5,758 bases of DNA. Origin: a virus (taxonomy: Duplodnaviria > Heunggongvirae > Uroviricota > Caudoviricetes). Made by a program: the position numbers. Positions 3,001-5,758 of the stretch are shown here, piece by piece. The stretch lies in the IMG/VR virus record IMGVR_UViG_2778261708_000019, one strand, 5' to 3'. Numbering within the stretch: position 1 is the stretch's first letter; the number at the start of each line of letters is the position of its first letter.

Positions 3001-5758
3001 TGCCGCTGTCTCAGCGCGCGTTGCTGCAGATTCCGCCGTACTTTTGCTCTGAGCTGCTGCCGTCGCACTACCAGCTGCCTCTGTCGCCTTCGTGGATGCC
3101 GTCGTGGCGCTGCTCTTCGCTGCTGACGCTTGTCTGGTCGCCTCATCTTTTGAAGCAGACGCAGATGATGCCGATGACGCCGCCGAACTGGCTGACGATG
3201 CGGCAGCCGTTTTTGAGGATTCTGCGCTGGTTTCCGACGCTTTCGCGTTCGTTTCGGATGTCTTCGCTGCGGAAGCAGAACTCGCTGCTGCGCTGGCCTG
3301 TTCAGTGGCTTCGCCAGCCTTCGTTGTGGCTGTTGAAGCAGACGATGCGGCACTTTCTGCCGATTTTCCGGCGGCGGTGGCACTGGCTGAGGCCTGCCCG
3401 GCACTTGTTGACGCGGCACTGGCAGATAATGCAGCCGCTGTTTTTGAGCCTGCTGCTGCGGAGGCACTCTGTTCTGCTGCCGTTTCAGAGGACTTAGCGT
3501 TTGTCTCAGACGTTTTGGCCGCCTTCGCGGAATTGCCTGCCGCCGTTGCCGAGGAGGCTGCACTACTGGCGCTCGAGGCTGCGCTCGTTTCTGATGATTT
3601 TGCCGCCTCTTTTGAAGCCGACGCATCCCTGGCTGAGGAGGCAGCTTCTGACGCTTTCGTGGTCGCGGTGGATGCAGAAGTGGCGGCTGATTGTTGTGAC
3701 ACTGCCGCATTCGTTTCTGACGTTTTCGCCGCACCGGCACTGGTAGCCGCCGCGCTTTTTGAGGACTCTGCAGCGGCAGCACTTTTTGATGCTTCAGTAG
3801 CCTTTGTTGATGCCGTTCCTGCGCTGGAAGACGCTGACTGAGCCGACGACGCGGCCTGTCCGGCTGACGTGCTGGCTGCGCGTGCTGAGTCCGCAGCATC
3901 AGTCGCATGGGTTGCCGCCTCACGGGCTGATGTGCTGGCATCGCTGGCTGACTTCTTCGCGGCTGCCGTGTTCTGTGCCACCGCGGACGCGTTACGCGCC
4001 ACCTCTTCCACCATCAGCTCAAAACGGCGCAGTGCCTCCGGACGGACATCATCCTCAGTCATGGCACCAAGAAAATCATTCAGCGTACCGGGTTGAGAAT
4101 CTTCATACACGGTGATGGTCCCGGCATGTGACGGCGGGAACCCTTCCACCAACAGAATAACGCTGTACTGACCGTACTCAACGTCCATGCTGTAACGCCC
4201 GGCTTCATCCGGATTTTCTGAGGCCAGCGTGTTCACCACCACCGTGGTACTGTTACGTTTTGCTTTCAGCTGGATTGTGCAGTTCTGTACCGGTTTTCCT
4301 GTGCCGTCTTTCAGTACACCTGAAATCTTTACTGCCATATTCACCCCACAAAAAAGCCCGCCTGAACCGGCGGGCTGTCATAACACTGTGTTACCTAGCT
4401 AATCAGAATTTATAACCAACACCCACGATGAACCCGTCAGTGCGCCAGTCACCACTGCCAGAACCTTCATAAGCAATATCAATGGCCACGGATTCGGTCG
4501 GGTTAAACTGCACGCCAGCCCCCCACGCCAGAGACGTGTTGCTGTGGCGACCGTCATCACTTCCGGTCAGCACATCGTGCGTTTTCCCCTTGTTGTCAGT
4601 TACGCGAAGGTAATCCCCGGAAAAAGTCGAAACACGGCTGTAAGCCATACCCGCCATCGCATACGCGCTGAACCATTCATTCACGCGCACAGACGGCCCC
4701 GCCATCACGCTGAACCAGCGGTTACGCACGGAATCTTCATGCCAGCGGGTATCGCTGTAACGGGTCAGCTGGCGATTCTTGTCTCCTGCATAGCTGAATG
4801 ACGTCACCAGCCCCAGCGTATCCGTAAACTCATAACGGTATTTCACGTTAATCCCGTTCAGATCATCACTGCCGGGAACGTTGGTCCGGGCATGAAGATA
4901 CCCCGCGCTCAGCGTGGACTGATGTTCAGATGCCCATGCAGGCGCACCGGATACGGCCAGACAAATGGCTGCGGACAAAATGGCGGCATAAAGTTTACGC
5001 ATAATTACCTCTCGCTTTTCTGCAATAAAAAAGGCGTCATTTCTGACGCCCGTTCTGGGTTATAAAATTCAGCTGATACTGATACCTGCTGTGGATTTTT
5101 TCATCACCACAACCAGCAGATCGCTGATACTGGTTGTTGGTGTCCAGTTATTCGCTCCTGATGAAGATACGGTGAATGTCAGTGTCAGCGTCCCCTGTCC
5201 GGCAGGCATATCTATAACTGAGGAAAATACGCCCTGAGCATCCGTCGTGGACTGATTAAAAATCTCCTGGCCATTGCGGGTCACTCTTAACCGGCAGGTT
5301 GAATACCAGTATGACTGTTGGTTATTACTGTTGAAATTCTCATGCTTACCACCGCGGAATAACACTGGCGGTATCATGACCTGCCGGTCAAATTTCTGAT
5401 CATCACTGATTCTTACCGTGATGGTGCCACTGGCATAAGTGCTCGTGCGGGGGAAAGACTTGCTGACCGTTTTGACAATATCGCCTTCAATCTGATTGGC
5501 TGACAGTTTCCCCTTAATCTGACAGTTCTCATTAATCGTGACGTTGTTGAGCGTCCCGGAGTTCGCATTCACACTGCCACTGATATCCGCATTTTTAGCA
5601 GTCAGCTTTCCGTCCGGTGTCAGGGAAAATGCCGGTGGATTTCCACCGCTGGTAATGGTGGGGGCCGTCAGGCGCTTCAGGAACACGTCGTTCATGAATA
5701 TCTGGTTGCCCTGCGCCACAAACATCGGCGTTTCATTCCCGTTTGCCGGGTCAATAAA

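Follow-up and report, generated by a model that had tools for sequence, protein, structure and literature searches.

Exchange of the C-terminal cassette of the tail protein J is a textbook case of lambdoid mosaicism. Lambda J (PDB 8XCJ, 8XCK and 8IYK) has LamB as its receptor, and a close described counterpart of the domain considered here is A8 gpJ, made by joining lambda J, cut at residue 964, to a natural E. coli J C-terminus (Brödel et al., Nature 2024, PMC11338833; bioRxiv 2022.09.30.509847). [quoted passage not shown] With A8 and/or a second chimera, 1A2, 21 of the 23 tested OmpC variants worked, the two proteins accepting different sets of OmpC alleles (PMC11338833). Since the A8 particles bore a P2-type side fibre, which binds LPS (PMC11338833), their dependence on OmpC belongs to J. 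A structural counterpart is also available: PDB entry 9wcb, retrieved by a PDB search with OmpC, contains three chains named "Outer membrane porin C" alongside "A8 gpJ 713", so that a complex of this type of receptor-binding domain (RBD) with OmpC has already been solved; a literature search found no paper describing 9WCA/9WCB. The second relevant system is the long-tailed Stx2a phage vB_EcoS_phi330 (PV189401), which among 54 Keio outer-membrane mutants fails to plate on the ompC deletion only and regains plating with Plac-ompC (PMC12502783). It is the complete phage, and not J in isolation, for which this need for OmpC is established; the objection that it might be due to the side fibre instead of J was considered and rejected, given the P2-type fibre of the A8 particles.

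The locus analysed here, hereafter the window, is a stretch of 5,758 nt from a tailed virus (IMG/VR record IMGVR_UViG_2778261708_000019), and one of its edges cuts the J gene. All coordinates are those of the whole stretch, and the J part comprises the following features.

5069-5758, minus strand: 3′ end of J, the last 229 codons; no stop interrupts the frame before the window edge, beyond which the gene runs on.
5549-5758, minus strand: counterpart of lambda J 904-973, the last part of the straight central fibre (Phage_Tail_Tip, PF09327); 70/70 amino acids and 205/210 nt as in lambda.
5546-5551, minus strand: mosaic junction at lambda J codons 973/974; lambda-like upstream, phi330-like downstream.
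5072-5548, minus strand: divergent J RBD of 159 aa (Ig_GpJ_C, PF12421), very probably of the A8/phi330 OmpC-binding type; 43% identical to lambda, 157/159 to A8, 159/159 to phi330.
5435-5446, minus strand: loop TSTY, J 1008-1011; 4 aa shorter than in lambda, holding the only two differences from A8.
5312-5341, minus strand: 10-aa hairpin, J 1043-1052; a 5-aa insertion relative to lambda.
5138-5155, minus strand: hairpin ANNWTP, J 1105-1110; adjoins a 1-aa deletion relative to lambda.
5069-5071, minus strand: J stop codon TGA.
5032-5051, minus strand: terminator-like hairpin with a T-run between J and lom; a terminator is annotated at the same site after J in the phage 21 record.

Assignment of the fragment to the lambda J family is straightforward. 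The Pfam model PF12421 (Ig_GpJ_C), described as [quoted passage not shown], matches J fragment residues 105-229 with 127.2 bits against a cut-off of 26.2 bits (E=5.9e-37), and PF09327 (Phage_Tail_Tip) matches residues 1-69 with 40 bits against a cut-off of 22 bits. Three features of a lambda-type J are thus present: the PF12421 RBD, the PF09327 shaft directly upstream of it, and the gene order J-lom-stf-tfa. On the plus strand opposite 5069-5500 no ORF of at least 50 aa is found, and the sole other ORF of this size under the same interval, 51 aa long, lies on the minus strand out of frame. Strain ERL04-3476 is 100% identical to the window over the aligned 99% of its length and encodes a full-length J of 1132 aa, the same length as lambda J, to which it is identical at 1021 of 1136 aligned positions (90%), being near-identical up to residue 973. 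The window itself covers the last 229 codons only, and the strains with matching sequence make it probable that J is intact in the source genome.

Comparison with lambda J (NC_001416, 1132 aa) divides the fragment into two sharply different parts. Residues 1-70 coincide with lambda J 904-973 without a single replacement, in agreement with the close match of this segment stated in the earlier note, and both peptides quoted there occur in the minus-strand translation of 5069-5758. Residues 71-229, aligned to lambda J 974-1132, share with it 71 of 164 columns (43%) and differ by three indels of -4, +5 and -1 aa. Counted in consecutive windows of 20 columns, identity along the alignment runs 20, 20, 20, 17, 11, 8, 10, 4, 6, 13 and 5, followed by 7 in the last 14 columns, the first mismatch falling on lambda residue 974. 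The uniformly high identity up to the last residue, which would have spoken against a divergent C-terminus, is clearly absent, and so is the high identity to lambda J 974-1132, receptor-facing loops included, that marks a LamB allele. The loose similarity previously ascribed to the final ~150 residues therefore stands as 43% identity with three indels, the block being in fact 159 residues long; likewise, the divergent block does lie at 5069-5500 as proposed, but its real extent is nt 5072-5548, past position 5500.

The nature of the boundary is revealed by setting the same DNA against lambda and phi330. Relative to lambda, the 210 nt upstream of the junction contain 5 differences, and nucleotide identity falls to ~60% over the 477 nt of the RBD. 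Relative to phi330 the pattern is opposite, with 47 nucleotide differences changing 12 codons in the upstream 210 nt and only 4 differences, all synonymous, in the 477 nt of the RBD. The RBD thus has the properties of an interchangeable cassette, joined to the shaft at about 5548/5549. A boundary of this kind, at lambda codon 973/974, represents classic, ordinary lambdoid mosaicism, a property also used by the engineers of A8. That a cassette from an O157 prophage and one from a Belgian Stx2a phage belonging to another genus (Pankowvirus) differ by 4 synonymous nucleotides, against 47 in the adjoining 210 nt, indicates that the cassette has spread horizontally in recent times.

A search of PDB sequences with the J fragment returned A8 gpJ 713 (9wca, 9wcb) as the best match, identical at 227 of 229 positions and at 157 of 159 within the RBD, with the lambda J entries 8xcj and 8iyk far behind. 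The only two differences are adjacent, S1009/T1010 in the window against N/S in A8 (TSTY versus TNSY). The supplementary "GpJ A8" DNA, although damaged by OCR, agrees with the window RBD in 457 of 480 columns and with lambda in 286 of 474, and encodes the same TNSY variant as the PDB chain. Both proteins consist of a lambda shaft followed by a natural RBD and follow a similar junction logic, fusion at lambda residue 964 in the one and a junction at 973/974 in the other; they differ in origin, A8 having been engineered as a chimera with lambda as its backbone, the window carrying a natural prophage gene. The J of phi330 has exactly the RBD of the window (159/159), is likewise followed by lom and belongs to an OmpC-requiring phage, but the 70 residues upstream are not the same and phi330, a Pankowvirus, possesses another shaft and another side-fibre region. 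Phi330 is the only experimentally used carrier of the exact RBD sequence found in the window.

Near-identity to domains with a demonstrated OmpC requirement is thus observed twice, with A8 and with phi330, and by analogy with the experiments on identical or near-identical domains and with the PDB record the RBD of the window in all likelihood binds OmpC, not LamB. Identification of the fragment as a lambda J family member carrying the A8/phi330 OmpC-binding allele can be made with high confidence. The non-LamB receptor suggested previously on the grounds of divergence is supported in this way, with OmpC indicated by A8, phi330 and 9WCB; the question of the receptor, regarded in the earlier note as open, already has its answer in the literature.

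Positions of the indels are in line with this assignment. The AlphaFold3 model of phi330 names three loops (PMC12502783), which were placed on the J of the window by a simple offset. The first, T918-Y921, corresponds to TSTY and is predicted to make no contact with OmpC; E953-S962, corresponding to the hairpin J 1043-1052, is predicted to project into the barrel of OmpC; and A1015-P1020, equal to ANNWTP, to contact the rim of OmpC (PMC12502783). The three indels that separate the RBD from lambda coincide with these three loops. A single-sequence AlphaFold model of the J of the window itself was of low confidence (pLDDT 47.7).

The allele is by no means rare. Searching 50,697 phage records by tblastn, we found the 159-aa RBD in 245 records falling into discrete classes of identity. 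The class of at least 95% includes 44 phage records, many of them Stx1a/Stx2a-converting phages, plus Turner, Chlobot and 2H10; further classes are represented by phage 21 (~81%), Stx2 phage 1717 (~77%), WGPS2 (~62%), phage 434, long known as a user of OmpC (~47%), and lambda (~44%). At the DNA level, the RBD at 95% identity or higher is present in ~1,500 of the 20,395 records that make up 5,426 complete E. coli genomes, and the allele is very common in this species. The window as a whole matches many complete E. coli O157:H7 chromosomes at 99.9-100% identity and is best taken as part of a lambda-like prophage of that serotype. The J proteins of phage 21, Stx2 phage 1717 and Stx2a_WGPS2 belong to the same RBD family and length class, and the 20-residue C-terminal motif of the window RBD is common to phage 21 and WGPS2 with one residue changed in 1717, but substitutions are concentrated in loop regions. 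A literature search found no receptors for these three phages, and for ECOR-derived PhiR phages it gave nothing usable. Phage 434 J shares with the window the Ig_GpJ_C fold family and OmpC as receptor, but at 47% identity and with other loop lengths it constitutes a separate allele class, the receptor-facing hairpins being not conserved between 434 and phi330 (PMC12502783); high RBD identity to phage 434 J, the mark of a 434-type allele, was not found in the window.

Downstream of J the window retains the order J-lom-stf-tfa, all on the minus strand, which is that of lambda.

4403-5002, minus strand: lom, an Ail/Lom outer-membrane protein, next after J as in lambda; PF06316, E=5e-120, full-length barrel.
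1423-4338, minus strand: stf, an intact side tail fibre of 971 aa; Pfam phage_tail_N, three Phage_fiber_2 and Collar.
842-1423, minus strand: tfa, tail fibre assembly; PF02413, 93% identical to lambda orf-194.

In the annotation of ERL04-3476, gpJ is likewise followed by Ail/Lom, a prophage tail fibre and a tail fibre assembly product, and lambda-like genes I, K, L, M and H stand before it. With just 46% identity to lambda Lom, against the nearly identical J shaft and the 93% of tfa, lom represents a separate mosaic module. The stf gene is intact, in contrast to lambda PaPa; its N-terminus is 80% identical to lambda orf-401 and its His-rich tip 69% identical to the C-terminus of lambda orf-314, with an extended Ala/Ser-rich region and three Phage_fiber_2 repeats, which form a 132-nt tandem array at 2630-2940. 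Its 971 aa compare with 774 aa of the Stf of Ur-lambda. The latter is a binder of OmpC, and since the tip of the fibre in the window is 69% identical to its tip, J and Stf might both target OmpC. Whether the phage follows such a single-receptor strategy, deliberately avoided by the engineers of A8, or the S1009/T1010 loop tunes the set of accepted OmpC alleles, is a rather speculative and on balance unlikely addition to the assignment.

Several observations concern the surroundings. Terminator-like GC hairpins with T-runs on the minus strand directly follow both J (5032-5051) and lom (4355-4376); these putative terminators suggest that transcription of lom and stf-tfa could be independent of the tail operon. 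Positions 882-1080 of the minus strand, within the 3′ half of tfa, match the Rfam family IS009 (RF02111) with 229 bits, and this candidate sRNA family appears to have been modelled on the coding sequence of prophage tfa. Positions 1-127 coincide exactly with the terminal part of an IS3-family element, IS1203/IS629, inserted in a manganese-catalase (katN-like) pseudogene, whose C-terminal remnant is the ORF 363-722 (119 aa, PF05067). Most O157 strains match the window from nt 128 only and are therefore devoid of the element here; ERL04-3476 does carry it, but lacks the 45 nt of window positions 128-172.

The mode of action may be pictured after the complex of lambda J with LamB (PMC11101478), on which the following scheme was modelled. 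J makes up the trimeric central tail fibre with its last ~159 residues folded as an Ig-like RBD at the very tip; the shaft keeps the lambda type as far as residue 973, while the RBD is another allele, probably taken up as a cassette when recombination occurred at codon 973/974. The distal loops of each RBD, including the hairpins J 1043-1052 and ANNWTP, are expected to enter a single OmpC barrel or attach to it, upon which the bases of the RBDs would spread, the beta-prism fibre twist and the helical shaft flip, so that the tail tip may open and ejection of DNA be triggered. Domain architecture is common to both proteins and the trigger mechanism is presumably shared, so a conformational trigger on docking is what we infer for the prophage protein, assuming that its J copy is expressed and functional, as is probable.

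Two readings dispute the receptor itself. One may suppose that the diverged RBD still uses LamB, having drifted in sequence with no change of receptor, as it remains within the fold family PF12421 and retains 43% identity in the core strands. Such persistence appears extremely improbable, given that the A8 chimeras came out of a selection on cells lacking lamB and depend on OmpC provided in trans, that phi330 with its identical RBD is blocked by deletion of ompC alone in the lamB+ Keio background, that 9wcb pairs A8 gpJ with OmpC, and that all three indels relative to lambda sit in loops predicted to be receptor-facing. A narrower version attributes a shift in specificity to the replacements N1009S and S1010T relative to A8, for instance towards fewer OmpC alleles or another porin such as OmpF. 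The host range of lambda J can indeed be altered by a few point mutations, including a switch from LamB to OmpF (cited in PMC11101478), and A8 and 1A2 differ in the OmpC alleles that they accept (PMC11338833); however, phi330 has the exact RBD of the window, S1009/T1010 included, and uses OmpC of K-12 (PMC12502783), and both residues belong to the short TSTY loop, which according to the AlphaFold3 model of phi330 lies away from contact with OmpC (PMC12502783), making such a shift very unlikely.

The third reading leaves specificity aside and takes J for a relic in a defective O157 prophage, its RBD having no present function in this genome. That many lambdoid prophages of O157:H7 are defective is established knowledge, and the tail module is flanked by the IS629/IS1203 end at positions 1-127 and, in related strains, by IS elements and pseudogenes. 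On the other hand, lom, stf, tfa and J are all intact ORFs, and the RBD accumulated no amino-acid replacement relative to phi330 alongside its 4 synonymous changes, so that we consider decay doubtful, though a reading with some claim to attention. It concerns current expression only and does not contradict the assignment of OmpC as the receptor of this J allele, which is the reading preferred here.

The allele of the J RBD, its OmpC receptor and the structure of the complex are thus already on record, and no new biology is added to them by this locus. What is gained is annotation of the host-range determinant in a widespread tail module of O157:H7 prophages as OmpC-specific, very probably so by its relation to A8 and phi330, which bears on the prediction of strains that may be infected or transduced by such prophages, including the long-tailed Stx phages equipped with the same cassette.
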